A stretch of 64,000 nucleotides of DNA from Candidatus Oxydemutator sp. (GCA_965203445.1 OZ241883.1:1152001-1216000); one strand, 5' to 3'. Positions 30,822-63,029 are shown, counted from the stretch's first letter. Translations and numbers: made by a program. Notes: generated by a model not told the origin, from the letters alone.

Positions 30822-30891
30822 CCTTCTCCCTCTGGGAGAGGGGTGCCACAGGCTCGTAATGTAACCCTCTCCCCCTAGGAGAGGGTGGGCC
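30822..30891. repeat. Palindromic REP-like element, inverted relative to 24165/27417
   Basis: CCCTCTCCCCCTAGGAGAGGG; supplies the stop codon of the adjacent MTase. Confidence 0.8.
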
Positions 30892-43049: not shown

Positions 43050-44123
43050 TTGGGGTGCCATCGGGCGAGAGGGCAACAAAACGGGAATTGGGTTTCGATG
43101 CCGCAAAGCGGGCGCAATTTACCGCTCGTCGAGATGCTTTTGACAACTATGCGCAATGTGGGCATAGTAAGCGGCACACCGCTTCTTCCCCAAGTGAATA
43201 ACAAAAATCCACTTGTCAACGGCAGGGGTCGAAAGAAACCGCCGCCACCGATTGCAAGGCTTGCCCGAAAAAAGAAGCTGATTCCATTCGGATGGTACGG
43301 TGGCAAGTTCTCGCACCTGGATTGGCTGTCGCCGCTGTTGTCGCAGTGCCATCATTACTGCGAACCGTTTGGAGGCTCCGCCGCCTTACTGCTGAATCGC
43401 GCGCCCGCCCCCGTGGAAACATACAACGATCTCGACGGCGAAGTTTGCAATTTCTTCCGCGTGCTTCGGGACGAATCCCAAGAATTGATTCGGCTGATCG
43501 GGCTGACTCCCTTTTCGCGCGAGGAATTCGGGATTGCCTGCACACTCGACCCGGACGCCTCTCCGGTAGAGCGGGCGCGAAGGTTTTACGTCAGGGCGAG
43601 ACAGGTGCGCACGGGTCTGGCGCAGACCGCCTCGATGGGCCGATGGGCAAATTGCAAAAATACGACCAGGGCCGGGATGAGCGGCGTTGTCAGTCGCTGG
43701 CTGGGAGGCGTGCAGGCATTGCCCGAAATTGCGGAACGTCTGCTGCGCGTCCAAATCGAGAATCGCCCGGCCGTTGACGTGATCAATTTATACGACGCCC
43801 CCGATACATTGTTCTACTGCGACCCGCCCTACGTACACCAGACTCGCGGCGATGCAAAGGCATACGGCTTCGAGATGACCGACGAACAGCACGAGGAACT
43901 TGCCGACGTGCTCAATTCCGTGCGCGGGATGGTCGCGTTTTCCAATTACGATTGCCGTTTGCTGAACCGGCTCTATCCGAAAAGTCGCTGGTTCAAGCAC
44001 GTTTCCCCGCCAAGAACCAACCACGCGACAAAAGGCAAGCGGATCGAGGTGCTGTGGACGAATTACGATTTGCGAAAAAGTCTTTCCCGACGGGAGAAAC
44101 AGGAAAAGCTGGAGCTGGCCTGA
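43050..44123 (+). CDS. D12/Dam-class N6-adenine DNA methyltransferase (true start probably downstream, e.g. GTG 43194)
   Basis: WYGGK, YCEPFGGS, YNDLD, FYCDPPY. Confidence 0.9.
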   Translation: MGCHRARGQQNGNWVSMPQSGRNLPLVEMLLTTMRNVGIVSGTPLLPQVNNKNPLVNGRGRKKPPPPIARLARKKKLIPFGWYGGKFSHLDWLSPLLSQCHHYCEPFGGSAALLLNRAPAPVETYNDLDGEVCNFFRVLRDESQELIRLIGLTPFSREEFGIACTLDPDASPVERARRFYVRARQVRTGLAQTASMGRWANCKNTTRAGMSGVVSRWLGGVQALPEIAERLLRVQIENRPAVDVINLYDAPDTLFYCDPPYVHQTRGDAKAYGFEMTDEQHEELADVLNSVRGMVAFSNYDCRLLNRLYPKSRWFKHVSPPRTNHATKGKRIEVLWTNYDLRKSLSRREKQEKLELA

Positions 44124-46916: not shown

Positions 46917-47029
46917 TATGGCGCTACTATACCACCACCAACATTGATGGCGCCAACACGGGATACGCTTAATTTTATCAGGGTTGCATGAAACTGGCGT
47001 ATATAATTCGCGGTCGGCACGATGAGCAG

Positions 47030-50000
47030 ATGAGCACCAAATTTTTCACCAATGACGGCAAGGGCACCTTGCTTGGCAAGTTTGCCGCGGTCTTCGAGCA
47101 CAATCCCCAACTGGTCGCGTTCGACGCCTTGGCGGGGTATTTCCGCGCCACCGGTTATTTCCGCCTGCGCCCGCATCTGGAACGGATCGGGCAGGTCAGG
47201 ATTCTGGTCGGCATAGACGTCGACAAGTGGAGCAGTGCGGCCCATCAAACCGGCCTCGCGTTGCGCTTCGGCGCCGATCAGGAGCAGGTCGCGCAAGACT
47301 TCCGGCGCAAGCTCAAGAAAGAGATAGCCGACGCCCCCTACGACTCCGACCTGGAGGACGGCGTGCTCCGGTTTGTCGAGGACGTCTCGTCCGGCAAAGT
47401 CGTGATAAAAGCGCATCCCTCGCGCAGGCTGCACGCCAAGATCTACATCTTCCGCCCCGAAAACTTCAACGAGCACAGCGGCGGCGAGGTCATCACCGGC
47501 TCCTCCAACCTGACCGAGGCCGGCCTGGGCGCGTCCGACCGCGACGCCAATTACGAGTTCAACGTCTCGCTCCGGGATTACGACGACGTCAAGTTCGCCA
47601 CCGACGAGTTCGAGCGGCTGTGGCGGGAGGCCGTGGACATCCTGCCGGAGGCGGTCGTCGCCGCAAAAAACGAGACCCACCTGGGCGACGACTGCACCGC
47701 CAACGATTTATACCTGAAACTGCTGATCGAATACTTCGGCAAGGAAATCGAGTTCGACCCCGACCGCATCACCGACGTGCCGAGCAACCTCATGCGCCTG
47801 AATTATCAGATGGACGCGGTCGAACAGGGTTACGCCCTGCTCGACCGGCATCGCGGCTTCTTTCTCGCCGACGTGGTCGGCCTGGGCAAGACCGTCATCG
47901 CCATCATGATCGCGCGCAAGTATTTCTTCATGAACGGCTATCCGGAATATCGTTCCCATACGCTGGTCGTGTGCCCGCCGGCGGTGGAGGCGAACTGGCG
48001 CGATACCATTGACGACTTCCGGCTGGACAATCCCCACTTCATCACCACCGGCAGTCTGCACAAGATAGACGACCCCGACAAATACGATCTGATCATCGTC
48101 GACGAGGCGCACAAATTCAGAAACAACACTTCCGAGAGTTACGCCCAACTACAGCGCATCGCCAACACGCCGTGCCGCAACGGGAAACTCAAGCGCGTCA
48201 TCCTGGTTTCCGCCACGCCGCTCAACAACAGGCCCGACGACCTGAAAAATCAGATCCTGCTGTTTCAGGACGCCAACAACGGCACCCTGGACGTCAACCT
48301 CGCGCGCTTCTTCAGCGAGGCCGAACGCAGATACAGCCAGCTGATCCGCAAGACCGGCCAGGACGGCAAGGCCAACAAGGCCAAACTCCACGGACTGTTT
48401 GAACAGATCCGCCTGAAAATCATCGAGCCGCTGACCGTGCGCCGCACCCGCGGCGACCTGCTTGAGCATCCGCTCTATGCGGAGGATTTGCGCGAGCAGG
48501 GAGTAGTCTTTCCGACGATCAACAAGCCGCAGACGCTGCTGTATCCGCTGAGCCGGAAACTGAACGAACTGTATGAGCAGACCGTGGCCCGCATTCAGAA
48601 CAGAAACGGCGCCGGCCTGCAATACGCCCGCCACCGGCTGATAGAGTTTCTCAAACCGGAGCACAAAAAAGATTACCAGCGCGCCGATTTCATCGTCAAG
48701 CAATTGACCGCCATCATGAAAACCCTGCTGGTCAAGCGCCTGGACAGCAGTTTTCATGCGTTCCACCGCTCGCTGCGACGGGCGCTCGACGCTTCCGACA
48801 TGCTGCTGAAGATGTGGGCGGACGACCGCATCATCATCGCGTCCAGCGTGGATCTCCAGAAGTATATCGAGGAAGGCAAAGAGGAAGACGAAGGGGCCGA
48901 ACTGATGGCGCAGCTGGAACGGGAGCAGGCCACCAACCCCGGCCTCAAAATCCTCACCCGCGACGACTTCGAGCAAGGGTGGCACGGGCTGATGGAACGC
49001 GATCACGCAATCCTGCGGGAGATGGAGCAACAGTGGCGGCAGGCGAACACGCAACCGGATCCCAAGCTGGCGGAGTTGCTCAAGCAGTTGCCGGCCACCC
49101 TGCTGGCGCCGCGGCAAAACCCCGAACGCAAGCTGGTGATTTTCTCGGAAGCCGCCGACACCACCGATTACCTGGCCGCCAGGCTGCAGGAAAAGGACTA
49201 TCGCGTGCTGGCCGTAACCGCCCACAACCGCGGCCAGCAGAAGGATGCCATCGAGCAGAACTTCGACGCCAACCACGCGCCGGACGAACAGAAATCCGAC
49301 TACGACGTCATCATCGCCACCGAAGCGCTGGCCGAAGGCGTCAACCTGCACCGCGCCAACACCATCGTCAACTACGACACGCCGTGGAACGCCACCCGCC
49401 TGATGCAGCGCATCGGGCGCATCAACCGCATCGGCAGCCAGGCGGAACAGATATACATCTACAACTTCCTGCCCACCGAGCAGGTCGAGGGCGACATCAA
49501 CCTGCGCCACCGCGCCCAGGTGAAACTGCAAGCCTTCCACAGCATCCTGGGCGAGGACTCGCAGATCTACACCCCCGACGAGAAATACAAAAGCTTCGGC
49601 CTGTTCGACAAGAACGTCACCGAAGAGCGGGAAATCAGCGAACGCCTGGCCTGCCTGATGGAAATCCGCCGCTTCCGGGAACAGCACCCCGACGAGTTCA
49701 AGCGCATCAAAAACCTGCCGTTGAAAATACGCAACGCCGTTCCTGTCGCCGGTGCCGTTCCCGACGACGACGACGGCGACGATGGCGGCACCATTCCCGG
49801 TGACCACACCGTCGCGCCGCCAAACGCCACCCTGTGTTTTCTGCGCAACCCGGCCCACGACGCCTTCTATCAGGTGGAAGGTTATCGCGCGGACGACGAC
49901 GGCGGCGATGGCAATGGCGATGGCGGCGACGATGGCCGCGTGAAAGAACTGGGCTTTCTCGAGGCGGTGGCGATGATGAAAGCGCATAAAGACGCCGCGA

Positions 50001-50425
50001 CAAAACCGCTGCCGGCCTGGCACCATCCGCAAGTGAAGGCCGCGACCGGACACTTTGCCCGCCAGATTCAGGAAAAAGCGATTGCCGAACAACAGACGCC
50101 GCAACTGAACCTGCAACAACGCGAAGCCATCGAATATGTCAGAGTATTCTGCGACCACAAAGTGAGCGGCGACGAGGAAAAACAGCGTATGCGCCAAGCC
50201 ATGGAATGGATGAAAATCGGGCGCTCGCAGCCACTGCACCGGGACCTGCAAAAGCTGAAACGCAGCCAGAAAAAATCGCCGACGGTTCCGGCCCTCCAGC
50301 TGGAAGCCATCCTCAAAATCATAGACAAGCACGTGCCGCCCGGGACAGACCGCCCCGAGAAAACCGCACCGGCCACAAAGCCTGACCAGCCGCCGCGCAT
50401 CATCATCTCCCAGAGCTACCTGTAA
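47030..50425 (+). CDS. PLD-nuclease + SF2/SNF2-like helicase (restriction-like subunit)
   Basis: LHAKIY...GSSNLT, ADVVGLGKT, VDEAH, SATP, EGVNL, QRIGRINRIG. Confidence 0.9.
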   Translation: MSTKFFTNDGKGTLLGKFAAVFEHNPQLVAFDALAGYFRATGYFRLRPHLERIGQVRILVGIDVDKWSSAAHQTGLALRFGADQEQVAQDFRRKLKKEIADAPYDSDLEDGVLRFVEDVSSGKVVIKAHPSRRLHAKIYIFRPENFNEHSGGEVITGSSNLTEAGLGASDRDANYEFNVSLRDYDDVKFATDEFERLWREAVDILPEAVVAAKNETHLGDDCTANDLYLKLLIEYFGKEIEFDPDRITDVPSNLMRLNYQMDAVEQGYALLDRHRGFFLADVVGLGKTVIAIMIARKYFFMNGYPEYRSHTLVVCPPAVEANWRDTIDDFRLDNPHFITTGSLHKIDDPDKYDLIIVDEAHKFRNNTSESYAQLQRIANTPCRNGKLKRVILVSATPLNNRPDDLKNQILLFQDANNGTLDVNLARFFSEAERRYSQLIRKTGQDGKANKAKLHGLFEQIRLKIIEPLTVRRTRGDLLEHPLYAEDLREQGVVFPTINKPQTLLYPLSRKLNELYEQTVARIQNRNGAGLQYARHRLIEFLKPEHKKDYQRADFIVKQLTAIMKTLLVKRLDSSFHAFHRSLRRALDASDMLLKMWADDRIIIASSVDLQKYIEEGKEEDEGAELMAQLEREQATNPGLKILTRDDFEQGWHGLMERDHAILREMEQQWRQANTQPDPKLAELLKQLPATLLAPRQNPERKLVIFSEAADTTDYLAARLQEKDYRVLAVTAHNRGQQKDAIEQNFDANHAPDEQKSDYDVIIATEALAEGVNLHRANTIVNYDTPWNATRLMQRIGRINRIGSQAEQIYIYNFLPTEQVEGDINLRHRAQVKLQAFHSILGEDSQIYTPDEKYKSFGLFDKNVTEEREISERLACLMEIRRFREQHPDEFKRIKNLPLKIRNAVPVAGAVPDDDDGDDGGTIPGDHTVAPPNATLCFLRNPAHDAFYQVEGYRADDDGGDGNGDGGDDGRVKELGFLEAVAMMKAHKDAATKPLPAWHHPQVKAATGHFARQIQEKAIAEQQTPQLNLQQREAIEYVRVFCDHKVSGDEEKQRMRQAMEWMKIGRSQPLHRDLQKLKRSQKKSPTVPALQLEAILKIIDKHVPPGTDRPEKTAPATKPDQPPRIIISQSYL

Positions 50426-53400
50426 TGGCCGACAAACAAGCACTGCAAGCGCTATTCGCCGCCGCCTACGACCGCGACCGCTGGCTTAAGCAACTGCATG
50501 ATATTTTTGCCGGGCGCCTGGAGGAGTTTGCGGCACCGCACGCTTTGCCGGCGAAAGAAGGCGAGGATGCGCCCCCGCGCCACTATCTCGGCAACCTCAC
50601 CACCGCGGACGGCAAAAAACTCGGCATCTTCGAGATACCGGTGGGCACCAATATCCGCCTTGCCCGCAACCGCGTGCAACTGCGCAACCTCGTGGCGCGC
50701 CAAGTGCAGGAACATACCCTGAACGGCGCCCTGGCCGTCTATCCCGACGCCGACAACCGCTGGCGCTTCAGCTACATCGCCGTTACCGGAAAACTGGATG
50801 AGAAGGGCGCCATCACAAAAGAAGAAACCGCCCACAAACGCTACACCTACCTGTTGGGCGAAGGCATGCAGACCCGTACTGCGGTCGACCGCTTTGTCGC
50901 CTTGCCGACACCCCCCATCCTCGAACAACTCGACTATGCCTTTGCGACGGAACCGCTCAACAAAGTGTTCTACCAGGAGCTTTACCATTGGTACGAACGC
51001 GCCAAACTTCATGTGGTGTTCCCCAACGATGAACGGGAAGAGGAAGACACGCACGTCTCCACAAGCCTGATTCGCCTGCTGACCCGATTACTCTTTATCT
51101 GGTTTATGAAGGAAAAGGAACTGATCAATCAGGATTTCTTTGTCCTCGATAAGGTCAGACACATGATTGATTGGAACAGGGAGAGCAGCTACTACAAAGC
51201 CATCCTGCAAAACCTGTTTTTTGCCACTTTGAACCGCGAGATCCCAAAGCGCCGGTTCCGCACCACCAACGCCAAGGGCAAGCCGACCGGCAACAACTAC
51301 CTGGTGACCAATGTCTATCGCTATGAGCGCTATTTCAAAGGCATGAAAAAAGCGGAAATTATCAAGCTGTTCGCCCAAACCCCGTTCCTGAACGGCGGCC
51401 TGTTCGAGTGCCTGGACAGAGACGCCGATGAAGAGAAACAACGGGTTTATGAGAAAGACAGAACTATTCGCAAAGAGAGAAAAGAGAAACGAGCAATCCG
51501 CATGGACGGCTTTTCCGACCATGACAAAAACCGGCTGCGTGTGCCCAACGACCTGTTTTTCAACGACGACGAAGAACAACCCGGCCTCATCAACCTGCTT
51601 TCCCGATACCAGTTCACCGTGGAAGAAAGCATGCCGTTGGATGCAGACGTGGCGTTGGACCCCGAACTCCTGGGGTTGGTGTTTGAAAATCTGCTGGCAT
51701 CCTACAACCCCGAAACCGAGCAAACCGCCCGCAAAGCCTCCGGCTCCTACTACACCCCGCGCGAGATCGTCTCCTACATGGTGGACGAAAGCCTGAAAGC
51801 ATATTTTGCGCAAGCAACCGACGTGGCCGACACAAAGATCAACCGCTTGTTCCTGCCCCCGCAGGCAGGCAAGGATTCGACTACCGGCGCGGCAAGCGAA
51901 CTCACCGAGAATGAGACGACGGCCCTCATCCAGGCGATAGATACCATCAAGATCATTGATCCTGCGGTCGGCAGCGGCGCCTTTCCGATGGGGATATTAC
52001 AGCGATTGGTGCAGATACTCGGCATTGTTGATCCCGAAAACAAACGCTGGAAAAAACGGCAAACGGACATTATTGACAAACTGCCGGACACCGAGAGCCG
52101 CGAGCAGGCACGCAAGGAAGTGGAAACTATTTTCAGCGAAAAGAATCGTTTTAACGATTTCGGACGCAAGCTGTATCTGATCGAAAAGTGCATCCACGGC
52201 GTGGACATCCAGCCCATCGCCTGCCAGATTGCCAAGCTGCGCTTCTTCATCTCGCTGACCATCGAGCAGAAGCCGACCGATGACCCTCACGACAACCGCG
52301 GCATCAAACCACTCCCCAACCTCGAAACCAGGTTTGTCGCCGCCGATACGCTGCTGGGACTTGACAGACCGGCCCAACGCACATTGGGACAAACCGACGC
52401 CGTCAACCGGTTGGAACGGGAGCTGAACGCCAATCGGGAGCGACATTTTCGCATCACCACACGCAAATCAAAGATGGCGTGCTGGAAAAAGGACAAGGAA
52501 CTGCGAAACCAACTGGCCACCGAGCTGAAACAGGCCGGCTTCCCCGCCACCAACGCCGACAAAATTGCCCGCTGGGATCCCTACGACCAGAATGCCTCAG
52601 CAGCTTGGTTCGACCCTGCATGGATGTTCGGCGTCAAGGGTGGCTTTGATGTAGTTATCGGCAATCCACCCTATGTCGAGTCAAGAAATAGTTTGCTGCC
52701 AAATGAACTAAAGAATTCTTACGGAAAGCAGGTACTAAGTGACTGGAAAGAAACCTTACCTCGTGGAAGTGATTTGCTTATCTACTTTTACGCTCGCTCC
52801 TCGAAACTACTAAAGCGTGATTCAAGTTACGGCTGTTTTATCACTCAAAACGCTTGGCTAAGCACCGACTATGGGAAAAAATTTCAAAAGTTTTCAATCG
52901 GAAAACTCTCTTTCCAGAAGATCGTTGACACCTCCTCCAAATTCTTTCTCGATACCAAAAGCCAAAACATCAATGCAGTTATCACATTTTTTACTACGAA
53001 ACCATTGCAAACCATAGAATATGGGGTTGCTGATAGCAATATGACTGTTGCCTCAATGAAGAATATTAAAGCGAAGCAAACAATGAAATGGGGACACCTT
53101 TTTTCTATGCCACAATTCTTCGCGGATATATTGTCGAAAATGTCTGCTAACGCTGGTACGAGCAATACGATCAAGTTTGGACAAGGATTAAACTTCCCTC
53201 TGCAAGAATTAAACAAAGTGGGAGCCAAAATACCTATTATTGTCAAAACCTCGTGGTTCGTTGCCAAATCTGCCGACGGGCTGATACTTCAGGCTAACAG
53301 GAAAAAAGAAAAAATACCGGCACTGATTCTACCGCGTGGAGTGGGAAACCGGCACTATTGCACCTTTAATTTGTGCAGGGCATTTTCATACAGCCATGTA

Positions 53401-53787
53401 GAATTATATCTACCTGATGACTTACGAAATTCGGCAAAGCACTATTGCCTATGGCTCTATCTCAACTCTTCCTTTGTTTGGTTGTATAGAGAAATCACAG
53501 GTAGAAAGAATCTTGGGGGAGGCTTGTTGAAGGCCGAGGCAACGGATATGAAAGCATTGCCTGTTGATTTTGACTTTGATTTTGGCAAGGACGCAAAAAA
53601 GGTGTTTAATAGTATCCGAGATAGAACACCAATGCCCGTTTTGGAGGAAATTCATACGAAGGATCATATTCTCATAGACGAAATAGTGGCTAACTATTTT
53701 GGTTTTACAGATATGCAAGGAACCATTAGAGAAACTCTATCTGAACAGGTTAATTTTCGTCTGAACAGAGTGCGCCCCCAACACTGA
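50425..53787 (+). CDS. Eco57I/TaqI-class N6-adenine MTase with C-terminal TRD (type IIG-like)
   Basis: GSYYTP, IDPAVGSGAF, GVDIQ, GFDVVIGNPPY; coupled to the helicase by TAATG. Confidence 0.92.
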   Translation: MADKQALQALFAAAYDRDRWLKQLHDIFAGRLEEFAAPHALPAKEGEDAPPRHYLGNLTTADGKKLGIFEIPVGTNIRLARNRVQLRNLVARQVQEHTLNGALAVYPDADNRWRFSYIAVTGKLDEKGAITKEETAHKRYTYLLGEGMQTRTAVDRFVALPTPPILEQLDYAFATEPLNKVFYQELYHWYERAKLHVVFPNDEREEEDTHVSTSLIRLLTRLLFIWFMKEKELINQDFFVLDKVRHMIDWNRESSYYKAILQNLFFATLNREIPKRRFRTTNAKGKPTGNNYLVTNVYRYERYFKGMKKAEIIKLFAQTPFLNGGLFECLDRDADEEKQRVYEKDRTIRKERKEKRAIRMDGFSDHDKNRLRVPNDLFFNDDEEQPGLINLLSRYQFTVEESMPLDADVALDPELLGLVFENLLASYNPETEQTARKASGSYYTPREIVSYMVDESLKAYFAQATDVADTKINRLFLPPQAGKDSTTGAASELTENETTALIQAIDTIKIIDPAVGSGAFPMGILQRLVQILGIVDPENKRWKKRQTDIIDKLPDTESREQARKEVETIFSEKNRFNDFGRKLYLIEKCIHGVDIQPIACQIAKLRFFISLTIEQKPTDDPHDNRGIKPLPNLETRFVAADTLLGLDRPAQRTLGQTDAVNRLERELNANRERHFRITTRKSKMACWKKDKELRNQLATELKQAGFPATNADKIARWDPYDQNASAAWFDPAWMFGVKGGFDVVIGNPPYVESRNSLLPNELKNSYGKQVLSDWKETLPRGSDLLIYFYARSSKLLKRDSSYGCFITQNAWLSTDYGKKFQKFSIGKLSFQKIVDTSSKFFLDTKSQNINAVITFFTTKPLQTIEYGVADSNMTVASMKNIKAKQTMKWGHLFSMPQFFADILSKMSANAGTSNTIKFGQGLNFPLQELNKVGAKIPIIVKTSWFVAKSADGLILQANRKKEKIPALILPRGVGNRHYCTFNLCRAFSYSHVELYLPDDLRNSAKHYCLWLYLNSSFVWLYREITGRKNLGGGLLKAEATDMKALPVDFDFDFGKDAKKVFNSIRDRTPMPVLEEIHTKDHILIDEIVANYFGFTDMQGTIRETLSEQVNFRLNRVRPQH

Positions 53788-53820
53788 GTGCAAATCACTT
53801 GGGTGGCCAAGCCCATTAAG

Positions 53821-53931
53821 TCCACCAACACCACCGACACCAGCGCCCAAGAAACCAAAATCAACCACCTCGTATATAATCTCTACAACCTGACCCCAAA
53901 AGAAATCGCCGCATTGGAGCAGAAAAAATGA
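53821..53931 (+). pseudogene. Remnant of a type IIG MTase C-terminus (type A copy 1)
   Basis: Translates DTSAQETKINHLVYNLYNLTPKEIAALEQKK*; its TGA overlaps the next ATG. Confidence 0.75.
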
Positions 53932-55295
53932 ACAAACCAGCCAAGGTATTCATCACCTATTCACATCGCAATAAAGACGCGAGGGAAAAACTGAGCGAGC
54001 GCCTTGCGGTGATGGAGAAAAATGGGGAGATAGAAATCTGGCACGATAACGAAATACTCCCGGGCGACAGGTGGCGAGAAGAGATCTCCAAGAATCTTGC
54101 CGGTTCAGATATTCTGCTTCATCTTACTTCCGCGGCCAGCCTTGCCTCCGAAAACTGCAACAGAGAACTGACCGAAGCACTGCGAAGTGAGGAAAGGATA
54201 CGTAGGATTCCCATCATCCTCGAAGCTTGCGACTGGAAGCACGAACATGATCTCAGTCAGATTGAGGCACTTCCCGACAAAGGCAAACCTATCAACGAGT
54301 GGAAACCTAAGAGCAAAGGTTGGCAAAGTGTAGTCGACGGCCTACGCAAAGCTATCCAGAAAACCCGCCAGCTCATGCAGGAAGAGCAAAGTGAAGCACA
54401 GGCTTATTTGATGCTGCAAAATGGCAATTTTTTTGCGATATTAGGGCAACTGGAAGACGCAATAAACACTTATTCACAAGCCATTAAGATCAAATCAGAT
54501 TTTGCCGATGCCTATTGCAATCGCGGCATTGTTCATGCCAAGAAAGGCGACCATGACCAAGCCATCCGAGACTACAACCAAGCCATTGAACTAAACCCCG
54601 ATTTTGCCGAGGCCTATTACAATCGCGGCATTTCCTGCGAGAAGCAGGATAACCATAACCAAGCCATCCAGGATTACAGTAAAGCCATCGAACTAAAGCC
54701 CAGTTATACCGAGGCCTATAACAATCGCGGCGTTGCCTACGAGAAGCAAGGCAACCTTAACCAAGCCATCCAGGATTACAGTAAGGCCATTGAACTAAAT
54801 CCCAATTTTGCCAACTATTATTTCAATCGCGGCCTTGCCTACGAGAAGCAAGGCAACCTTAACCAAGCCATCCAGGATTGCAGTAAAGCCATTGAACTAA
54901 ATCCCGATTATGCCGAAGCCTATAACAATCGCGGCCTTGTCTACGAGAAGCAAGGCAACTTTAACCAAGCCATCCAGGATTACAGTAAGGCCATTGAACT
55001 AAATCCCAATTATGCCGATGCCTATTGCAATCGTGGCACTACTTACTTTGAACAGGGTGATTTTGACCAAGCCATCCGAGACTACAACCAAGCCATTGCG
55101 CTCCAGCCAGATTTTGCCGAGGCCTATTGCAACCGAGGTATAGTTTGGTTGTGCAAGCAAGCATGGAATGAAGCCAAGTCAGATTTGGAGACCGCCAAGG
55201 AAAAGGGCATGAACATTGCCAAGCGAATGTCTGACTTTGTAGAGAAATACCAGAGCCAACTACCGGAGGACATCATAGATATACTGACCGAATAA
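53928..55295 (+). CDS. TIR-domain + TPR protein (about 8 TPRs)
   Basis: VFITYSHRNK, IWHDNEILPG, SENCNREL, IPIIL; then AYxNRG repeats. Confidence 0.9.
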   Translation: MNKPAKVFITYSHRNKDAREKLSERLAVMEKNGEIEIWHDNEILPGDRWREEISKNLAGSDILLHLTSAASLASENCNRELTEALRSEERIRRIPIILEACDWKHEHDLSQIEALPDKGKPINEWKPKSKGWQSVVDGLRKAIQKTRQLMQEEQSEAQAYLMLQNGNFFAILGQLEDAINTYSQAIKIKSDFADAYCNRGIVHAKKGDHDQAIRDYNQAIELNPDFAEAYYNRGISCEKQDNHNQAIQDYSKAIELKPSYTEAYNNRGVAYEKQGNLNQAIQDYSKAIELNPNFANYYFNRGLAYEKQGNLNQAIQDCSKAIELNPDYAEAYNNRGLVYEKQGNFNQAIQDYSKAIELNPNYADAYCNRGTTYFEQGDFDQAIRDYNQAIALQPDFAEAYCNRGIVWLCKQAWNEAKSDLETAKEKGMNIAKRMSDFVEKYQSQLPEDIIDILTE

Positions 55296-55312
55296 GGCTT
55301 CTCCTTTCATTG

Positions 55313-55544
55313 CCCCCTCCCTCACCCGGCCTGCGGCCACCCTCTCCCAGAGGGAGAGGGTTTGGTTGACAGGAGTATCCCCACATAGGCCACCTTCATC
55401 CGCTTGGTGGACGCTATAATAGCCGCCAAATCCACCAATCCAACCGCCGACACCAGCCCCCAAGAAACCAAAATCAACCACCTCGCATATCAACTCTACA
55501 ACCCGACCCCGAAAGAAATCGCCGCTGTGGAAGACAAAACATGA
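55313..55544 (+). repeat. Inter-cassette spacer: palindrome + MTase C-terminal remnant (type A copy 2)
   Basis: CCCTCTCCCAGAGGGAGAGGG, then FIRLVDAIIAAKSTNPTADTSPQETKINHLAYQLYNPTPKEIAAVEDKT* overlapping the next ATG. Confidence 0.8.
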
Positions 55545-56875
55545 ATAATCAGACCGACAAAAACCAATTAGAAACAGTGCTGGAAATCATCAACCGCCTC
55601 GCCAAAGAATCGGTTAGCGGTGACTACATTTATCGTGGCGAACCCAAATGCTACGAGAAAGTATCATCCCGCCTCTACAGAGAAGAATGTAAGGATATAA
55701 AGGTTGATGGCTTTGACATTGAGGTTGTACAACAGGAAATACTAAAAGACGCTAAGCAATACACCACGCTGACAGATAAACTCGAAATTCTATCCGAACT
55801 CCAGCACTATGGCGGTAATACCAACCTGATAGACTTCACCACTGATTACCTGATCGCCCTTTTCTTTGCCTGTAACAGTTTGCTTGGCAAAGATGGTAAA
55901 GATGGCAGGGTGATCTTGCTGGAAAATACAGGCGAGTCTATTAACCAACCTCGAAATCCGCTCAATCGCATCATTGCCCAGAAGAGTAGATTCATCCGCC
56001 CGAAGCAAGGCTTCATTGAACCGAAAAAATATAAGGTCATTAAGATTTCAAAAGAGCTCAAGCCGCACATCTTGACGCACCTGCGAAAATCTCACGGCAT
56101 CTCCACGGAAACCATCTATAACGACCTACATGGATTCATAAGAAACCGAAGCATCCACCAAAGTGCCTACATAGAGTTCTATCGGGCATTTACCTATCAA
56201 GACAAAGGCGATAATGATGAGGCGATTAAACACTATACCGAAGCCATTAGACTCAATCCGAATTTAGTTGAGGCCTATAACAATCGCGGCCTTGCTTACT
56301 ATAGGAAAGATGACTACGACCAAGCCATCCAGGATTACAGTAAAGCCATTGACCTAAATCCTAATTATGCCAAAGCCCATTACAGTCGCGGCATTGTTTA
56401 CTATAGAAAAGGCGAACTTGATGAAGCCTTCCAAGACTTCACCCGAGCTATTGAACTACAGCCAGATTTTACCGATGCTTATTACAACCGCGGCGTTGCT
56501 TACTCTAGCAAAGGTGAATTTGATGAAGCTATCAGAGACTACAACCAAGCTATTGCGCTCAATCCAGATCATGCCGAAGCCTATAACAACCGTGGTGCTG
56601 CTTACGATAAGAAAGGTAATTTTGATAAAGCTGCCGAAGACTACAACCAAGCCATTACGCTCCAGCCAGACAATGCTGTTGCCTATTTCAACCAAGGTAC
56701 AGTCTGGTTGCGCAAGCAGGCATGGGATGCAGCCAAGTCAGATTTGAAGGCCGCCAAGGAAAAGGGCGCAGACATTGCCGAGCTATTTTCCAATGACTAT
56801 GGCAGCGTTTCAGCCTTTGAAGAGAGATACCATATTCAACTACCAGCGGACATCAGAGATATGCTGACCGCATAA
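55541..56875 (+). CDS. FRG-domain + TPR protein (about 6 TPRs)
   Basis: YIYRGE, LQHYGGNTNLIDFT, IALFFAC, NRIIAQKS; TPRs plus shared C-terminal cap. Confidence 0.88.
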   Translation: MNNQTDKNQLETVLEIINRLAKESVSGDYIYRGEPKCYEKVSSRLYREECKDIKVDGFDIEVVQQEILKDAKQYTTLTDKLEILSELQHYGGNTNLIDFTTDYLIALFFACNSLLGKDGKDGRVILLENTGESINQPRNPLNRIIAQKSRFIRPKQGFIEPKKYKVIKISKELKPHILTHLRKSHGISTETIYNDLHGFIRNRSIHQSAYIEFYRAFTYQDKGDNDEAIKHYTEAIRLNPNLVEAYNNRGLAYYRKDDYDQAIQDYSKAIDLNPNYAKAHYSRGIVYYRKGELDEAFQDFTRAIELQPDFTDAYYNRGVAYSSKGEFDEAIRDYNQAIALNPDHAEAYNNRGAAYDKKGNFDKAAEDYNQAITLQPDNAVAYFNQGTVWLRKQAWDAAKSDLKAAKEKGADIAELFSNDYGSVSAFEERYHIQLPADIRDMLTA

Positions 56876-56892
56876 GGATTTCCATTTCATTA

Positions 56893-57077
56893 CCCCTCCC
56901 CCGGCCTTCGGCCACCCTCTCCCAGAGGGGGAGGGTTTGGCTGATAGGAATATCCGCTGTGAAGGATAGCCACAATCAGGGAGGATAGGCTACTATAATC
57001 AAACAAAACTTGACTACCTAATCTACCGAAGCACAATCTCAGCCAAGCCGAAATCGCCACTTATGGAGAAAAAATGA
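56893..57077 (+). repeat. Inter-cassette spacer: palindrome + type B remnant
   Basis: Palindrome, then GCCACAATCAG...CTATAATCAAACA...TTGACTACC...GCCAAGCCGAAA shared with 59649; frameshifted LDYLIY..NLSQAEIA. Confidence 0.7.
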
Positions 57078-58579
57078 ACGAACCGGCCAAACTGTTCATC
57101 ACCTATTCGCATCGGGACAAAGACGCGAAGGACAAACTGATCGAGCGTCTTGCGGTGATGGCCCACAATGGGGAGATAGAAACTTGGCACGACAACGAAA
57201 TTCTCCCAGGCGACCAATGGAAGGAAAAAATCTCCGACCGTCTCGCCGGTTCGGATATTCTGCTTTATCTTACTTCCGCGGCCAGCCTTGCCTCCGAAAA
57301 CTGCAACAAGGAACTGACCGAAGCACTGCAAAGCAGGGGAAGGATACGTACGATTCCCGTCATCCTTGAAGCTTGCGACTGGCAGGAACATAAGCTCAGT
57401 CAGTTTGAGGTGCTCCCCCACAAAGGCAACCCCGTCAACGAGTGGAAGCCTGAGAGCAAAGGTTGGCAAAATGTAGTCGAAGGCATACGCAAAGTTATCC
57501 AGGAAATCCAGGCTATCCAGGCAACCCGCCGGCCCATGCAAGAAAAGCAAAGTGAAATACTGGCTTATTTGATGCTGCAAAATGGCAATTTTTTTGTGAT
57601 GTTGGGGCAACCAGCAAACGCAATAGCCGCTTACTCACAAGCCATCAAGATCAAACCGGATTTTGCCGCAGCCTATAATAATCGCGGCGCCGCATACGAT
57701 AAGAAAGGTAAATTTGATGAAGCTATCGAGGACTTCAACCAAGCCATTGAACTGAACCCCAATCATGCTGAGGTCTACTACAATCGCGGCATTGCTCATG
57801 GCAAAAAAGGCAACTATGACCAAGCCATCCGAGACTGCAACAAAGCCATTGCGCTCCGGCCAAGTGATGCCGATACCTATAACAATCGCGGCATTGTCTA
57901 TGAAAAGCAAGGCAACCCTAACGCAGCCATCCAGGATTACAGTAAAGCCACTGAACTAAATCCCGATTATGCCGAGGCCTATTACAATCGCGGCATTGCT
58001 CATGGTAAAAAAGGCGACTATGACCAAGCCATCCAAGACTTCGACAAAGCCATTGAACTAAACCTGAATTATGCCGGGACCTATAACAATCGCGGCGTTG
58101 TCTACGAGAAGCAAGGCAACCATGACCAAGCCATCCGAGACTACAATAAAGCCATTGCGCTAAACCCCAATTTTGCCGAGGTCTATTGCAATCGCGGCGT
58201 TATCTATAAGAAACAAGGCAACTCTAATCAAGCCATCCAGGATTTCAGTAAAGCCATTGAACTAAATCCCAATTTTACCGGGGCCTATTACAATCGCGGC
58301 CTTGCTCATGGCAAAAAAGGCGACTATGACCAAGCGCTCCGAGACTTCAACCAAGCCATTGAACTACACCCTAATTATGCCAAAGCCTATTTCTACCGAG
58401 GCATGGTCTGGTTGCTCAAGCAAGCATGGGATAAAGCCATGTCAGATTTGAATACCGCCAGGGGAAAGGGCCTGAATATTGCCGAGCTGTTTTCCAGCGC
58501 CTTTGGCAGCGTTCCTGCCTTTGAACAGAAATACCGTATCCAACTACCGCAGGACATCAAAGATATGCTGACCGCATGA
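57074..58579 (+). CDS. TIR-domain + TPR protein (about 9 TPRs)
   Basis: Paralog of 53928; SENCNKEL. Confidence 0.9.
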   Translation: MNEPAKLFITYSHRDKDAKDKLIERLAVMAHNGEIETWHDNEILPGDQWKEKISDRLAGSDILLYLTSAASLASENCNKELTEALQSRGRIRTIPVILEACDWQEHKLSQFEVLPHKGNPVNEWKPESKGWQNVVEGIRKVIQEIQAIQATRRPMQEKQSEILAYLMLQNGNFFVMLGQPANAIAAYSQAIKIKPDFAAAYNNRGAAYDKKGKFDEAIEDFNQAIELNPNHAEVYYNRGIAHGKKGNYDQAIRDCNKAIALRPSDADTYNNRGIVYEKQGNPNAAIQDYSKATELNPDYAEAYYNRGIAHGKKGDYDQAIQDFDKAIELNLNYAGTYNNRGVVYEKQGNHDQAIRDYNKAIALNPNFAEVYCNRGVIYKKQGNSNQAIQDFSKAIELNPNFTGAYYNRGLAHGKKGDYDQALRDFNQAIELHPNYAKAYFYRGMVWLLKQAWDKAMSDLNTARGKGLNIAELFSSAFGSVPAFEQKYRIQLPQDIKDMLTA

Positions 58580-58596
58580 GGATTCCCATTTCATTG

Positions 58597-58828
58597 CCCC
58601 CTCCCTCACCCGGCCTGTGGCCACCCTCTCCCAGAGGGAGAGGGTTTGGTGAAGAAGAATATCCCCTGCATAGGCCATCTTCATCTGCCTGATGGACGTT
58701 ATAATAGTGCTATGCCCACCAAAGCTGGCTGCCGACACCAGCCTCCGAAAAACCAAAATCAACCACCTCATCTATCAACCCTGCAACCTGACCCCGAAAG
58801 AAATCGCCACCGTGGAGAAACAAAGTGA
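58597..58828 (+). repeat. Inter-cassette spacer: palindrome + type A remnant copy 3
   Basis: Palindrome, then ADTSLRKTKINHLIYQPCNLTPKEIATVEK. Confidence 0.78.
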
Positions 58829-59625
58829 GCACACAACCAATTGAAGCAGTTGCTGAATACCTTAAGCAAGTCTCAACAATAAAACAGCAGTGGCAGTCTC
58901 CTGTATTAGTCTTTCGCGGCCAGGAAAATGAAGAGTGGAGCTTGGAATCTTCGGCGGAACGCCGCCTGAAGAAGTCCGAGAGCAGAAAAAGAATAAACAA
59001 ACAGTTATTCATTAAGTATCACAAAGACCTGTTAAAGGAATGCAAGCTGAAGAACTATGACAGGCGGGAAGGCAAATCATTGCATGAACTGGAACTCCTG
59101 GCCGATCTCCGACACCATGGCGCCGCTACTTGCCTCATGGATTTCACGCGTAGTGCTCTCGTTGCTCTATGGTTTGCCTGCGAAAAATCAGAGGCGAATG
59201 GAAAAGTGTTTGTTGTCAACACCGCCAATAAAAAAACCTTTTCGGGAATAGAACCCGACGATATAGACAGCCAATCAATAGAAGACATTCTCAGATTTCA
59301 AACTCGTAAAAAGAAGCGAGTCAAACTACAGGAAGAAAGAACATCCAAAACAGTACAAAGCAGACGTTTTTGGCACTGGGCACCAGCACGCCTGAACGAA
59401 CGCATAACGGCGCAACATTCGCTGTTCCTCTTCGGCCCCCCTACCTCTGGAGAACCGGAGGCAGGAACGATACTTATAGAATCAGGGGAAAAAGCGCAAA
59501 TAAGGCGGGAACTGGAAGAAATACACGGGATCAATGAAGAGTCTCTCTTCCCGGATTTTGCAGGTTTTGCCTACACCCAGCGATACCGTGTCTGGGGTCA
59601 ATACTTGGACAAAAGCTTGGCATAG
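58825..59625 (+). CDS. FRG-domain protein without TPRs (possibly 3'-truncated)
   Basis: VFRGQ, LRHHGAATCLMDFT, VALWFAC, ERITAQHSLF, GINEESLFPD. Confidence 0.85.
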   Translation: MSTQPIEAVAEYLKQVSTIKQQWQSPVLVFRGQENEEWSLESSAERRLKKSESRKRINKQLFIKYHKDLLKECKLKNYDRREGKSLHELELLADLRHHGAATCLMDFTRSALVALWFACEKSEANGKVFVVNTANKKTFSGIEPDDIDSQSIEDILRFQTRKKKRVKLQEERTSKTVQSRRFWHWAPARLNERITAQHSLFLFGPPTSGEPEAGTILIESGEKAQIRRELEEIHGINEESLFPDFAGFAYTQRYRVWGQYLDKSLA

Positions 59626-59648
59626 AGTGATATTCTCCACAAGAGATG

Positions 59649-59761
59649 GCCACAATCAGAGTAGACAGGCTGCTATAATCAAACATAAGGTTGACTACCC
59701 AATCCAACCAATATTACTATCTCGGCCAAGCCGAAACCGCCGCTTAATGGAGGAACAATGA
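59649..59761 (+). repeat. Type B remnant spacer
   Basis: Homologous to 56969-57077; contains TGCTATAAT; TGA overlaps the next ATG. Confidence 0.7.
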
Positions 59762-61017
59762 ACGAACCGGCCAAACTGTTCATCACCTATTCGCATCGGG
59801 ACAAAGACGCGAAGGACAAACTGAGCGAGCACCTTGCGGTGATGGCCCGAAATGGGGAGATAGAAACTTGGCACGACAACGAAATTCTCCCGGGCGACCA
59901 ATGGAAGGAAAAAATATCCGACCGTCTCGCCGGTTCGGATATTCTGCTTTATCTTACTTCCGCGGCCAGCCTCGCCTCCGAAAACTGTAACAAGGAACTG
60001 GTCGAAGCGCTGCAAAGTGGGGAAAGAATACAGCCAATTCCCATCATCCTTGAAGCTTGCGACTGGAAGCAACATAAGCTCAGTCAGTTTGAGGTGCTCC
60101 CCCACAAAGGCAAACCCGTCAACAAGTGGGAGCCTGAGGGCAAAGGCTGGCAAAGCGTAGTTGAAGGCATACGCAAAGTTGCCCAGGAAACCCGCCGGCC
60201 TATACAAGAAGAGCATAGTGAACCACTGGCTGACGCGCTGCTGGAAAATGGTAATTTTTTTATGATGCTGGGGCAGCTGGCAAGCGCGATAGACGCTTAT
60301 TCACAAGCCATTAAGATCAAGCCGGATTTTGTCGAAGCCTATCGCAACCGCGGCGCTGCCCACGGTATGAAAGACGAACATGACCAAGCCATCGAGGACT
60401 TCACCCGCGCTATCGAACTACAGCCAGATTTTGCCAAAGCCTATTGCAACCGCGGCATCGTCTACAGCAGGACAGGCGAACAGGGCCAGGCCGTCCGAGA
60501 CCTCACCCGCGCGATTGAACTACGGCCGGATTTTGCCAGAGCCTATAACAGCCGCGGTGTTGCTTACGGCAGGAAAGGTAAATTTGATGAAGCTATCAGA
60601 AACTTCGACCAGGCCATTGCGCTCCAGCCAGATTATGCCGAGGCCTATTACAATCGCAGCATTACCTACGAGAGGCGAGGCAACCTTGACCAGGCCATCG
60701 AGGATTATAATAAAGCCGCTGATACCTATATCAAGCGCGGCAACGCTCATGGCAGGAAAGGCGACTATGGCCGAGCCATTCGGGACTACAACCATTCCAT
60801 TGCGCTCAATTCAGATGATGCTGCCGCCTATTGCAATCGAGGTATGTTCTGGTTGCTCAAGCAAACATGGGATAAAGCCAAGTTGGATTTGAGGACCGCC
60901 AGGGACAAGGGCGCGGACATTGCCGAACTGTTTTCCAATGACTATGGCAGCGTTTCAGCCTTTGAAGAAAAATACCATCAACTGCCGGAGAACATCAAAA
61001 ATATGCTGACCGCATGA
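59758..61017 (+). CDS. TIR-domain + TPR protein (about 7 TPRs, one shortened)
   Basis: TIR near-identical to 57074; TPR5 lacks its IELNPx linker. Confidence 0.9.
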   Translation: MNEPAKLFITYSHRDKDAKDKLSEHLAVMARNGEIETWHDNEILPGDQWKEKISDRLAGSDILLYLTSAASLASENCNKELVEALQSGERIQPIPIILEACDWKQHKLSQFEVLPHKGKPVNKWEPEGKGWQSVVEGIRKVAQETRRPIQEEHSEPLADALLENGNFFMMLGQLASAIDAYSQAIKIKPDFVEAYRNRGAAHGMKDEHDQAIEDFTRAIELQPDFAKAYCNRGIVYSRTGEQGQAVRDLTRAIELRPDFARAYNSRGVAYGRKGKFDEAIRNFDQAIALQPDYAEAYYNRSITYERRGNLDQAIEDYNKAADTYIKRGNAHGRKGDYGRAIRDYNHSIALNSDDAAAYCNRGMFWLLKQTWDKAKLDLRTARDKGADIAELFSNDYGSVSAFEEKYHQLPENIKNMLTA

Positions 61018-61234: not shown

Positions 61235-62023
61235 ATGAACCGGCTTTCTGAACAAGTGGACAGTTATTACAGTTGGCTGCGGGCGAAGACGCATCTGCCC
61301 GCGGCAGGCGACAACGGCTGGCATTTGATTTCCACTCCTTTCCTGGGGTTGTTTAACGACACCATAGAGATATACGCCAGAAAGCGGGGCGACAACATCG
61401 TTCTCTCGGATGACGGCAAAACCTTGCACGACCTGGAACTGACGGGGATTTCCTTTTCCCGCTCATCCGCCCGCAAAGAGGCGCTGGAGCAGGTGTTGCT
61501 CAACTACGGCATTACGGAAAACCAGGGCGAATTGACGGTGCACGCGCAAGAGACCAATTTTCCGCAAAAGAAACACGACCTGATTCAGGCGATGCTGGAG
61601 ATCGGAGAGCTCCAGGTGCCGGCAAAGCATACCGTCGCCAAAGTTTTCAAGGACGACGTGCGCGCTTATCTGGATGAGCAGGAAATTGTCTATACGCCCC
61701 AGTTTATTTCCAAGGGTGCCGTCGGCATTGAGTTCACGTTTGATTTTCAAGTGGCCTACCGGGAAAGGGAAATTGTGTTGAAGTGCTTCAACGGCATCAA
61801 CAAAACCTCGTTGTCCAGTTTTTTGTTCATGTGGAAGGACATCAGTCCATTCAGGCGGGAGCTGACCGACAAGGACATATCGGGGCTTGCCTTCGTCAAT
61901 AACGAAGACAAGAACATCAAACGCGAATTTTTGGACGCCCTGAAGTCCGGCGGCGCGGATTACATCCTGTGGCAGGACCGACACGCGCCCGCAAACCTTG
62001 CAAAACTGAAAGAAGCCGCATAA
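61235..62023 (+). CDS. DUF1828/DUF1829-like protein
   Basis: ISTPFLGLFNDTIEIY...LSDDGKTL...FKDDV...SKGAVGIEFTFDF pattern. Confidence 0.7.
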   Translation: MNRLSEQVDSYYSWLRAKTHLPAAGDNGWHLISTPFLGLFNDTIEIYARKRGDNIVLSDDGKTLHDLELTGISFSRSSARKEALEQVLLNYGITENQGELTVHAQETNFPQKKHDLIQAMLEIGELQVPAKHTVAKVFKDDVRAYLDEQEIVYTPQFISKGAVGIEFTFDFQVAYREREIVLKCFNGINKTSLSSFLFMWKDISPFRRELTDKDISGLAFVNNEDKNIKREFLDALKSGGADYILWQDRHAPANLAKLKEAA

Positions 62024-62225: not shown

Positions 62226-63029
62226 ATGTCGCACCGAGATCGCCCCTTCGACGTCCAACCTATTCCTGCCGCCGGTCTGTCGGACCTCAATCTGGTTGGG
62301 TTTGAAAACGAGTATCTGCCCCGGGCGTTTTCCGATGAGGTGCTGGCCGCCAATGATCGCAGTCTGCATCAGCAACTCGCCGCCACAAAAATGATCGCAG
62401 CCGGCGCGCAGCCGGACGCCGATCAGGTCGCCGCGACTGTGCTCGGCCTTCTCACCATCGGCAAGAACCCGCAGGATTTTCTGCCCGGCGCCTACGTGCA
62501 ATTTCTCAGGATCAACGGCACCGAACGCAGCGACGACATCAGCGACGACGAGACCATGCGCGGCGCGATTCCCGACCTGCTCCGGCGCGTAGACGACAAG
62601 TTGACGGCGCACAACCGCGTCGCGGTCGCCATCGCCACCGGCACGGTCGAACGACGCACCGCGCTATATCCCGTCGAGGCGCTGCAACAAATCATCTGGA
62701 ACGCCGTCATGCACCGGACATATGAGGCGACCAACGCGCCGATCCATATTTACTGGTTCGACGACCGCATCGAGATCACCAGTCCCGGCGGCGCGTTTGG
62801 CATGGTCGCCGCCGACAACTTCGGGCAACCCGGCATCGTTGATTACCGCAACCCCAATCTGGCGGACGCGATGAAAACGCTCGGCTATGTCCAGCGCTTT
62901 GGCGTGGGAATATCCATCGCCAAACGGCAGTTGGCGGACGCGGGACATCCGCCGCCCGAGTTCGATATTTCCGCCAATCACGTGCAGGTCACAATCCGGC
63001 GCGTCGCACCCGCAGGGATGAAAAAATGA
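62226..63029 (+). CDS. RecG-C/HATPase_c_4-type ATP-binding protein lacking its N-terminal AlbA_2 domain (probably truncated)
   Basis: YPVEALQQIIWNAVMHRTY, DRIEITSPGG, RNPNLA, VQRFGVGI. Confidence 0.7.
   Translation: MSHRDRPFDVQPIPAAGLSDLNLVGFENEYLPRAFSDEVLAANDRSLHQQLAATKMIAAGAQPDADQVAATVLGLLTIGKNPQDFLPGAYVQFLRINGTERSDDISDDETMRGAIPDLLRRVDDKLTAHNRVAVAIATGTVERRTALYPVEALQQIIWNAVMHRTYEATNAPIHIYWFDDRIEITSPGGAFGMVAADNFGQPGIVDYRNPNLADAMKTLGYVQRFGVGISIAKRQLADAGHPPPEFDISANHVQVTIRRVAPAGMKK

Follow-up and report, generated by a model that had tools for sequence, protein, structure and literature searches.

In a 64,000-nucleotide stretch of the genome of Candidatus Oxydemutator sp. (GCA_965203445.1 OZ241883.1:1152001-1216000), referred to in its full length as the window, positions 53928-61017 carry an array of five co-oriented open reading frames (ORFs; genes A to E) on the + strand, none of which contains an internal stop codon. 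Gene A (53928-55295; 455 aa) encodes an N-terminal TIR domain, or head (Pfam TIR_2, E 3.6e-17; PADLOC ThsB1, E 5.1e-27), seven TPR units and a C-terminal cap; gene B (55541-56875; 444 aa) encodes an FRG head of a short type (Pfam FRG, E 5.5e-13; PADLOC PDC-S15, E 1.6e-21), five TPR units and a cap; gene C (57074-58579; 501 aa) encodes a TIR head (TIR_2, E 3e-17), eight TPR units and a cap; gene D (58825-59625; 266 aa) encodes an FRG domain of a long type only (FRG, E 2.6e-19; PDC-S15, E 6.8e-35); and gene E (59758-61017; 419 aa) encodes a TIR head (TIR_2, E 2.2e-15), five TPR units, one of which is disrupted, and a cap. The TIR_2 matches of A, C and E all exceed the Pfam cut-off of 28 bits, the Pfam TPR signals are very strong in A, B, C and E and absent from D, and the PADLOC models matched are ThsB-like for the TIR domains of A, C and E (E ~1e-27) and PDC-S15 for B and D. 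These ORFs and domains agree with the gene order TIR, FRG, TIR, FRG, TIR and with the coordinates given in a first-pass annotation of the window. The same annotation let the family end at 61017; the five genes of that span were recovered, but a sixth member lies 1.35 kb past the end of the window.

The proteins encoded by A, C and E are 63-68% identical to one another, and B is 40% identical to A, with nearly all of this identity within the TPR-cap portion. As claimed earlier, signal peptides are absent from A to E; the maximal 19-residue Kyte-Doolittle mean is at most 1.30 in all five proteins, and none has a hydrophobic segment. A Shine-Dalgarno-like GGAG is kept ahead of every start codon of the array.

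Two + strand genes precede the array. The first (46988-50425; 1145 aa) encodes a PLD (HKD) nuclease-like protein with an SNF2 helicase (Pfam PLDc_2, SNF2-rel_dom and Helicase_C), the best PADLOC model of which is C3a139 'HKD+Snf2' (E 4.4e-47), and the second (50425-53787; 1120 aa) encodes an Eco57I-family, type IIG-like N6-adenine methylase (Pfam Eco57I, E 3.3e-29; PADLOC REase_MTase_IIG, E 8.7e-60). On a 165-kb metagenome contig of 45% G+C (L021), the order of genes is PLD-SNF2 helicase, two small genes, Eco57I-type methylase, TIR-TPR-cap gene, small ORF, FRG gene and TPR-cap gene; the helicases in this position are 26% identical over 880 aa (E 1e-57) and the methylases 46% over 700 aa. From residue ~852 onwards the two methylases cannot be aligned, and the G+C content of the window gene is 0.54 for aa 1-850 and 0.41 from aa 851 to the end (window 52975-53787). 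Thus, the specificity region has evidently been replaced by one that brought its own stop codon, 47 codons ahead of the ancestral stop, and left the old tail stranded.

A relic of this tail (53788-53930, +) follows in frame directly after the methylase TGA, continuing the methylase ORF beyond its present stop, and its own TGA overlaps the start of gene A (ATGA). The same leader, which we call type 1, recurs on the + strand before B (55443-55548; repeat family D7, 87% identical to 53830-53935, with the TGA again overlapping the ATG) and before D (58728-58833; repeat family D7, 74%). In one frame of the 100 nt ahead of A, B and D, the encoded peptide ends in ..INHLVYNLYNLTPKEIAALEQKK, the TGA of which overlaps the ATG of A and B. 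The leader of C (type 2; 57010-57073, +; repeat families D11 and D12), which is shared with E and with the sixth member F, contains the tail relic in a more decayed form. No intact parent of the relic tail was found in the host genome; the methylase of L021 ends in the intact form ..DADTSDRENEIDKLVYELYNLTEDEITIVERSV, which shares 55% identity over 29 aa with the relic before A, and the methylases of four loci from Poribacteria (L049, L052, L053 and L057) share the tail ..LVYELY.LT.EEI..E. As judged from these shared tails, the leaders of the array are relics that derive from the C terminus of an Eco57I-type methylase. A promoter-like site coincides with part of the type 2 leader (57010-57037), but the scan for promoters and terminators performed overall no better than on shuffled sequences.

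To compare the genes at the DNA level, nucleotide identity was determined segment by segment. The leaders of type 1 (A, B and D) are 80-81% identical to one another, as are those of type 2 (C, E and F); the TIR heads are 73-90% identical; the heads of B and D are unrelated to one another and to the TIR heads (~45%); all caps, including that of the FRG gene B, are 73-87% identical; and the trailers of A, B and C are 84-91% identical. Because the type of leader is independent of the type of head, these identities show that heads were swapped between conserved flanks. Gene D fits into this scheme as a damaged member. Its nearest homologues (55-63% identity) nearly all have FRG and TPR, and homology to the spacer between B and C (repeat family D11) begins at 59617, 6 nt ahead of the D stop codon. 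D had correctly been described as FRG without TPR and is probably a truncated FRG-TPR-cap gene that lost its TPR-cap part by deletion. A REP-like, G+C-rich hairpin follows each gene, as at 55337-55360 (+) behind A, and has 10 matches in the window (24168, 27420, 30822, 30865, 34123, 55337, 56912, 58621, 61112 and 61181) against 0 expected. It gives rise to spurious ORFs on both strands and forms tandem arrays past the end of the window. We considered these hairpins as ends of the cassettes and rejected them in this role because five of the matches lie elsewhere in the window, as for a genome-wide REP-like element.

A profile of the cap matches six places in the host genome. Gene F (L007:1352-4660, genome 1217352-1220660) is the member that lies past the end of the window and consists of TIR, TPR and cap fused in frame, with no stop codon between, to a 706-aa protein with HATPase_c_3 and HATPase_c domains. 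The ATPase part stands alone in the genome of a relative (a frame of 710 codons, 31% identity) and G+C content is unequal between the two parts of F (0.50 versus 0.57), supporting that the fusion is secondary. The F stop codon is overlapped by a gene for a 435-aa protein without a Pfam or PADLOC family (L007:4660-5967). Gene G, which also encodes TIR-TPR-cap (L008:12351-13643), lies 290 kb away in a second island of low G+C content, together with a 1302-aa Dsr1 defence sirtuin (L008:4615-8523, PADLOC E 0), a type III-like methylase and a UvrD-like helicase. All seven ORFs, A to G, are open across 266-1102 codons and retain the residues at catalytic positions and the motifs of the cap. Gene H (L009:4069-5442) combines a long-type FRG with TPR, ends differently at the C terminus without a cap, and has REP-like elements upstream. 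Separately, a frame of 39% G+C (L010, genome 487538-491608, - strand) encodes a part resembling a type I specificity subunit, then a TIR domain and then a STAND-like P-loop nucleoside triphosphatase (NTPase), so that here, too, a TIR effector directly follows a gene for restriction specificity.

The cap, counted from the Trp in the final TPR unit through to the C terminus, comprises 56 aligned residues in A, B, C and E, of which 22 columns are invariant, with a mean column identity of 78%; the related cap that had been noticed on all four TPR proteins is thus evident. It matched 0 Pfam families. In the AlphaFold model of E (AF2; predicted local distance difference test (pLDDT) 88.1), three short helices (388-396, 399-405 and 411-418) make up the cap and follow the last TPR helix pair with a local pLDDT of ~90-97; a Foldseek search with this model returned generic TPR proteins only. 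Among 1.84 billion proteins, the profile made from the four caps found 467 cluster representatives at E<=1e-3 and 83 at E<=1e-10, and the match sits nearly always at the very C terminus. Of the best 150 matches, 88 are shorter than 250 aa and mostly fragments. Scored with hidden Markov models (HMMs) made from the TIR and FRG heads of the host genome itself, the heads on the other 62 are most often FRG (35), followed by this type of TIR (11), with 16 others. Heads and trailing domains vary further: P0133 carries a BrnT RNase-toxin head, in P0106 the TPR-cap is followed by a TaqI_C restriction-specificity domain, and in P0126 by TIR/SEFIR and pentapeptide repeats. Altogether, fusions of the cap to a TaqI_C-type specificity domain were seen in P0035, P0052, P0106, P0109, P0118, P0277, P0279, P0288, L025, L027, L048 and L058.

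Searches that started from the heads led back to the cap. The homologues of D (n=113) are mostly FRG+TPR proteins, and the cap ends 41 of the 72 that have at least 330 aa; a search with the TIR head yielded 351 cluster relatives at E<=1e-8, and among the 119 listed, 67 have the cap, 65 of them C-terminally. Swappable heads on a shared scaffold, as proposed in the first-pass annotation, are therefore seen both in proteins, where the cap follows FRG, TIR and BrnT heads, and in the 73-91% identical DNA flanks of the array; since the cap stands behind many heads in the databases, head swapping is a trait of a large family beyond the array locus. By these matches, the cap is a domain that has no name as yet, counts hundreds of members and could enter domain databases. 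We also observed TIR-FRG-TPR-cap in a single chain (P0323), TIR-TIR-TPR-cap (P0324 and P0357), and two long frames with two caps each (L013:7100-10363 and L048:8048-12202), one of which ends in a TaqI_C-type domain.

The TIR heads of A, C and E contain Glu80 within the motif SENCN(R/K)EL, as had been pointed out, and we take this position to be that of the catalytic residue of TIR domains. In pairwise HMMER alignments, Glu80 aligns with the Glu of the ..DEL or ..KEL motif in Cat1, PdTIR, RPP1 and 7xoz (a plant 'ADP-ribosyl cyclase' TIR); the E values are weak (0.003-1) and the register is the same throughout. Residue 80 is nearly invariant over 53 members of the TIR family. Moreover, residues 1-145 of the E model show the alternation of beta strands and alpha helices with a pLDDT of mostly 73-92. 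A PDB entry named 'Tetratricopeptide repeat protein' (9m0n) was dismissed as a relative, as it matched the TIR of C at E 0.66 and was absent from the matches of the TIR of E.

The family-conserved motifs of FRG, [FY]RG, H..G..T.L.DFT and R...AQ.S.F, are intact in B and D. A sequence search of the PDB with FRG found nothing. An FRG model made from D (116 sequences) has a pLDDT of 89.7 and a predicted template modelling score of 0.86. Its Foldseek list consists almost entirely of ADP-ribosyltransferases (ARTs), none of them at E<=1e-3, and in VIA-align the best match (TreX, an Rhs ART toxin) has a Z of 5.6, below the safe range of the tool, followed at Z 3.3-5.2 by diphtheria-, pertussis- and LT-type toxins, TccC3, Scabin, Tpt1, RES and ParT. 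The Aravind laboratory has placed Frg in the ART superfamily and regards it as possibly being an NADase effector (PMC9503650). It is plausible from the model that FRG folds like an ADP-ribosyltransferase, with scores that are weak and in accord with that assignment, and the suggestion that FRG is an alternative effector gains from both, in that FRG would be a plausible NAD-using head. With TIR and FRG both plausibly using NAD+, the interchange of the two heads makes sense.

The TPR units are strictly 34 residues long, giving a 102-nt periodicity with 19 in-register copies; 35 units were listed. Variability among them peaks at the canonical positions 12, 9, 17, 2 and 13, which we take to lie mostly on the concave, ligand-binding face. 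Consistent with the NTPase-less architecture that had been claimed, the best 25 of the 30-44 Pfam families matched by A to E include no NTPase family, and with a head of ~150 aa and TPR units from residue ~160-190 onwards the proteins have no room for one. Contigs from four sequencing runs contain pieces of the region, identical in one run and 95-99% alike in a run from a different study; these contigs end inside repeats, and many joints between TPR units with short sides are indistinguishable from assembly artefacts.

The array region is an island with a G+C content of 44-52% (47% overall) versus 63.6% for the whole genome, which is a single contig of 2.38 Mb; a housekeeping protein of this genome has its nearest named relatives in uncultivated Gammaproteobacteria. 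Among 40 genomes of relatives, one had the cap, as a weak match, and 400 other genomes of the phylum gave no match. The low G+C content together with the near absence of the cap from relatives and phylum supports that the island was gained by horizontal transfer.

To place the array among its counterparts, we collected further loci. An alignment of the TIR domain led to 12 metagenome loci, of which seven reach 4.7 kb or more beyond the TIR gene on its upstream side and five are too short to judge; a scan of contigs with the four-sequence cap alignment, which searched very narrow patterns, gave two loci; and the cap led to two genomes of Poribacteria with 8 and 11 cap matches, from which 13 loci were cut. 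A methylase homologue lies directly upstream in two of the seven metagenome loci (L020 and L021, probably from sister organisms), and on the same strand upstream in six of the 13 loci from Poribacteria (L048, L049, L052, L053, L056 and L057). In four of these eight methylase-bearing loci (L021, L049, L053 and L056), the methylase is preceded by the helicase; two of the other four have less than 1 kb of upstream DNA to inspect. The order helicase, methylase, cassette thus recurs in a metagenome contig and in both genomes of Poribacteria. In L049, the TGA of the methylase overlaps the ATG of an FRG-TPR-cap gene by 4 nt, exactly as the relics overlap the starts of A and B, and the N terminus of the encoded protein resembles that of B.

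In two further metagenome loci (L025 and L027), a TaqI_C-type domain is fused behind the cap and a gene for an ABC-type ATPase overlaps the stop codon; likewise, two of the 13 loci from Poribacteria have fusions of the cap to a specificity domain, and one locus has both fusion and methylase. The claimed link of the array to the adjacent restriction-modification system is thus borne out by conserved synteny with helicase and methylase, beyond mere adjacency. Other neighbours of the cassettes are defence genes as well: a Schlafen-type gene and a CBASS pair adjoin L022, the ABC ATPases stand at L025 and L027, and Dsr1 lies beside G. In L021 and L030, FRG and its TPR-cap are separate ORFs, and the same small ORF lies between the TIR-TPR-cap gene and the FRG gene (L021:12275-12694 and L030:1400-1987). 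The C-terminal sequences of the two small ORFs are nearly identical; they have no PADLOC family and, as we presume, resemble GxxExxY-type nuclease-like proteins.

The stop/start overlap in L049 and the relics in the window support that the cassette is, or was, co-translated with the methylase, and this coupling together with the repeated fusions to specificity domains argues for joint action of cassettes and restriction module over mere proximity. We favour, with a probability of roughly 55%, a reading in which an operon of an HKD/PLD-SNF2 helicase, an Eco57I-type methylase and at least one TIR- or FRG-TPR-cap gene is conserved, and in which the TPR-cap proteins would be single-chain, NTPase-less and autoinhibited NAD-targeting sensor-effector cassettes that form the third component of this restriction-like operon and have here been expanded into a repertoire. 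The operon would have entered the gammaproteobacterial genome by horizontal transfer; the array would then have grown by duplications that carried the 3' tail of the methylase along as leader, and heads would have been exchanged between the conserved flanks. In an uninfected cell, the TPR-cap would hold the head inactive, the row of near-consensus TPR units acting as variable sensor and autoinhibitor at once. A phage factor on the concave face of the TPR array, possibly one that interferes with the restriction module, would release or cluster the heads, which would cleave or convert NAD+ so that the infection is aborted, and different paralogues would recognise different triggers. In total, we consider the array probably to be an anti-phage system.

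In a bolder version, which we regard as unlikely, the TPR-cap would dock on and sense the TaqI_C-type specificity domain of the partner methylase, and the NAD-consuming head, in fused proteins (TIR-TPR-cap-TaqI_C) as well as in trans in the array, would be switched on by what happens to the restriction module, be it an encounter with unmodified target DNA or with an anti-restriction protein of a phage. A single machine would then combine restriction with abortive infection, and the row of paralogues would be a repertoire like an NLR cluster, generated by exchange of cassettes between methylase tail and cap.

Several observations weigh against the operon-based sensor-effector reading. Neither a methylase nor a fused specificity domain is present at three of the seven metagenome loci (L022, L028 and L031) and at six of the 13 loci from Poribacteria, and G has neither a relic leader nor an Eco57I-type methylase alongside, so that cassettes are clearly able to exist outside the operon. 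The variable TPR positions are the non-structural ones in any TPR family and do not prove diversifying selection. The truncation of D and the fusion of F to an unrelated ATPase could equally mean decay, the fold matches of FRG fall short of Foldseek and VIA-align thresholds, and trigger, oligomerisation and role of the cap are conjecture. Finally, we found no experiments on any family member in the literature. The loci that lack a methylase also fit an alternative in which stand-alone abortive-infection genes pile up behind the methylase, with its tail and the cap serving as recombination handles or as an insertion hotspot and without functional coupling to restriction. The listing of FRG proteins as the single-gene candidate PDC-S15 agrees with this, as do the mosaic identities, which point to frequent recombination at exactly the leader and cap flanks. 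However, the co-translation implied by L049 and the relics, the repeated in-frame fusions of the cap to a methylase-type specificity domain and the three-gene order held across distant genomes speak against it, and we consider this alternative possible but doubtful.

The alternation of heads in the array could also reflect duplicated pairs, in which a TIR-TPR-cap and an FRG-TPR-cap protein form a two-protein signalling pair like Thoeris or BcTir/Tpr, one making an NAD-derived signal and the other sensing it or executing the response. TIR is followed by FRG at A-B, C-D, L021 and L030, the two are fused in P0323, and BcTir/Tpr needs both proteins, in complex (bioRxiv 10.1101/2023.05.26.542521). 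Yet the pairing occurs in just two of the eight metagenome loci with downstream DNA, the loci from Poribacteria have FRG in seven, TIR in two and both in none, E, F and G lack an FRG partner, and a SLOG, Macro or STING-type receiver was not seen, the ThsA model matching only the SIR2 part of Dsr1; this makes signalling pairs quite unlikely. A role as eukaryote-like repeat effectors, by which a symbiont modulates its host through TIR mimicry of immune adaptors rather than defends itself against phages, is suggested by the distribution of the family, which is richest in Poribacteria by the copy numbers of the two genomes (8 and 11) and by named matches. We take Poribacteria to be sponge symbionts rich in TPR and ankyrin proteins, and bacterial TIR proteins can interfere with host signalling. 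For this richness in sponge symbionts we retain the host-directed role, at a very low probability: signal peptides, hydrophobic segments and neighbouring secretion genes are all missing, the cassette genes sit within a restriction-type operon to which their translation is coupled, their neighbours elsewhere are CBASS, Schlafen-type, Dsr1 and ABC ATPase genes, and the heads include a BrnT RNase toxin. It is just as improbable that most of the array is duplicated DNA in decay that no longer has a function. D without TPR-cap, F running without a stop into an ATPase, the disrupted TPR unit of E and the lost original tail of the methylase would fit such decay; the seven open ORFs with their kept catalytic-position residues and cap motifs, and the GGAG before every start, speak against it.

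Among known systems, the PADLOC candidate PDC-S15 (FRG, PF08867) is similar in that B matches 13 and D 14 of its models at E<=0.01, with FRG as the presumed effector head; it differs in being a candidate listing without TPR-cap scaffold, TIR sister genes or methylase linkage. BcTpr of Bacillus cereus has a MilB-like N-glycosidase head and TPR and is an autoinhibited NADase needed for phage defence, the TPR of which governs product and activity and for which an autoinhibitory configuration is described (bioRxiv 10.1101/2023.05.26.542521). BcTir/Tpr resembles the array in having a head that acts on the N-glycosidic bond of NAD+, a C-terminal TPR part (~400 aa) that regulates it, an adjacent TIR gene, and defence by NAD+ depletion. 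By contrast, and as far as this description extends, the head of BcTpr is MilB-like and here it is Pfam TIR_2 or FRG, which sets the two apart; BcTir lacks TPR and consists of a short TIR with altered catalytic features, whereas the TIRs of the array carry their own TPR; and the description has no cap and no methylase or helicase context. By analogy with BcTpr, we infer that the array proteins would be NAD+-consuming autoinhibited abortive-infection sensors.

The array TIRs match the ThsB1 model of Thoeris (E ~1e-27 over ~150 of 319 positions) and differ from it in that TIR is fused to its own sensor and ThsA is lacking; Thoeris itself was rejected since the ThsA1 model matches a single place in the genome, with positions 18-243 of 478, inside Dsr1 290 kb away, and none in the array. 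Avs and bacterial NLR-like STAND proteins share the effector head and TPR sensor, and the clusters of paralogues recall NLR gene clusters; we rejected this class because a central P-loop NTPase is missing from the Pfam results of A to E described above and the lengths leave no room for it. Sirtuins of the Dsr1/DSR2 type and SARM1 are NTPase-less single chains with an NAD+-consuming head under the control of helical repeats. We adopt this mode of control as the working model for the array. They have a SIR2 head or, in SARM1, a TIR with ARM and SAM, and are not known to form arrays or to be linked to a methylase, so that the likeness is one of mechanism only. PrrC-EcoprrI and RloC are abortive-infection effectors within a restriction operon over which they are thought to watch; they are unrelated anticodon nucleases, and a guard relation in the array is hypothetical.

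We found no paper describing the family; Burroughs and Aravind 2020, on 'TPR-centred assemblies', may list FRG-TPR or TIR-TPR architectures, and members may also be among the 78 operons used in the BcTir/Tpr preprint. FRG proteins are already listed as the candidate PDC-S15, and TIR or glycosidase heads on TPR are known in outline, as in BcTir/Tpr. New are the seven-member expansion in a small, unrelated high-GC genome, the relic leaders, which record coupling and growth of the array, the exchange of heads at the DNA level, the fusion in F and the synteny of three genes that includes the HKD-SNF2 helicase. If the preferred reading is true, this would be a widespread defence architecture in which one sensor scaffold accepts either of two unrelated NAD+-using folds, nature's own experiment on how modular effectors are, and NTPase-less sensor-effectors would form tandem diversifying clusters like plant NLRs. 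Moreover, a layer of abortive infection would be hard-wired, by translational coupling and sometimes by fusion, to a restriction-type helicase and methylase, making the long-discussed 'second line behind restriction' directly testable with constructs of three or four genes. The relic leaders are a rare readable record of how an array has grown.

The surroundings of the array contain further genes of defence type. Straight after it, window 61235-62023 encodes a DUF1828/DUF1829 protein (PADLOC PDC-M24B, E 3.4e-89), followed by a HATPase_c_4 protein (62226-63029) that is like the N-terminal regions of pAgo-associated proteins and by a ParA-like ATPase at 63026. A further defence patch (27504-31747) holds an AAA_21/AAA_15 ATPase, a tRNA-Ser gene (28922-29013), a GmrSD type IV restriction enzyme (28977-30767) and an N6_N4 methylase. 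On the - strand, window 34153-42957 encodes a 2934-aa protein with eight Calx-beta domains, which adjoins a multicopper oxidase and is unrelated to the array. Finally, a Dam-like methylase gene (43050-44123) is followed by an unassigned ORF of 431 aa.

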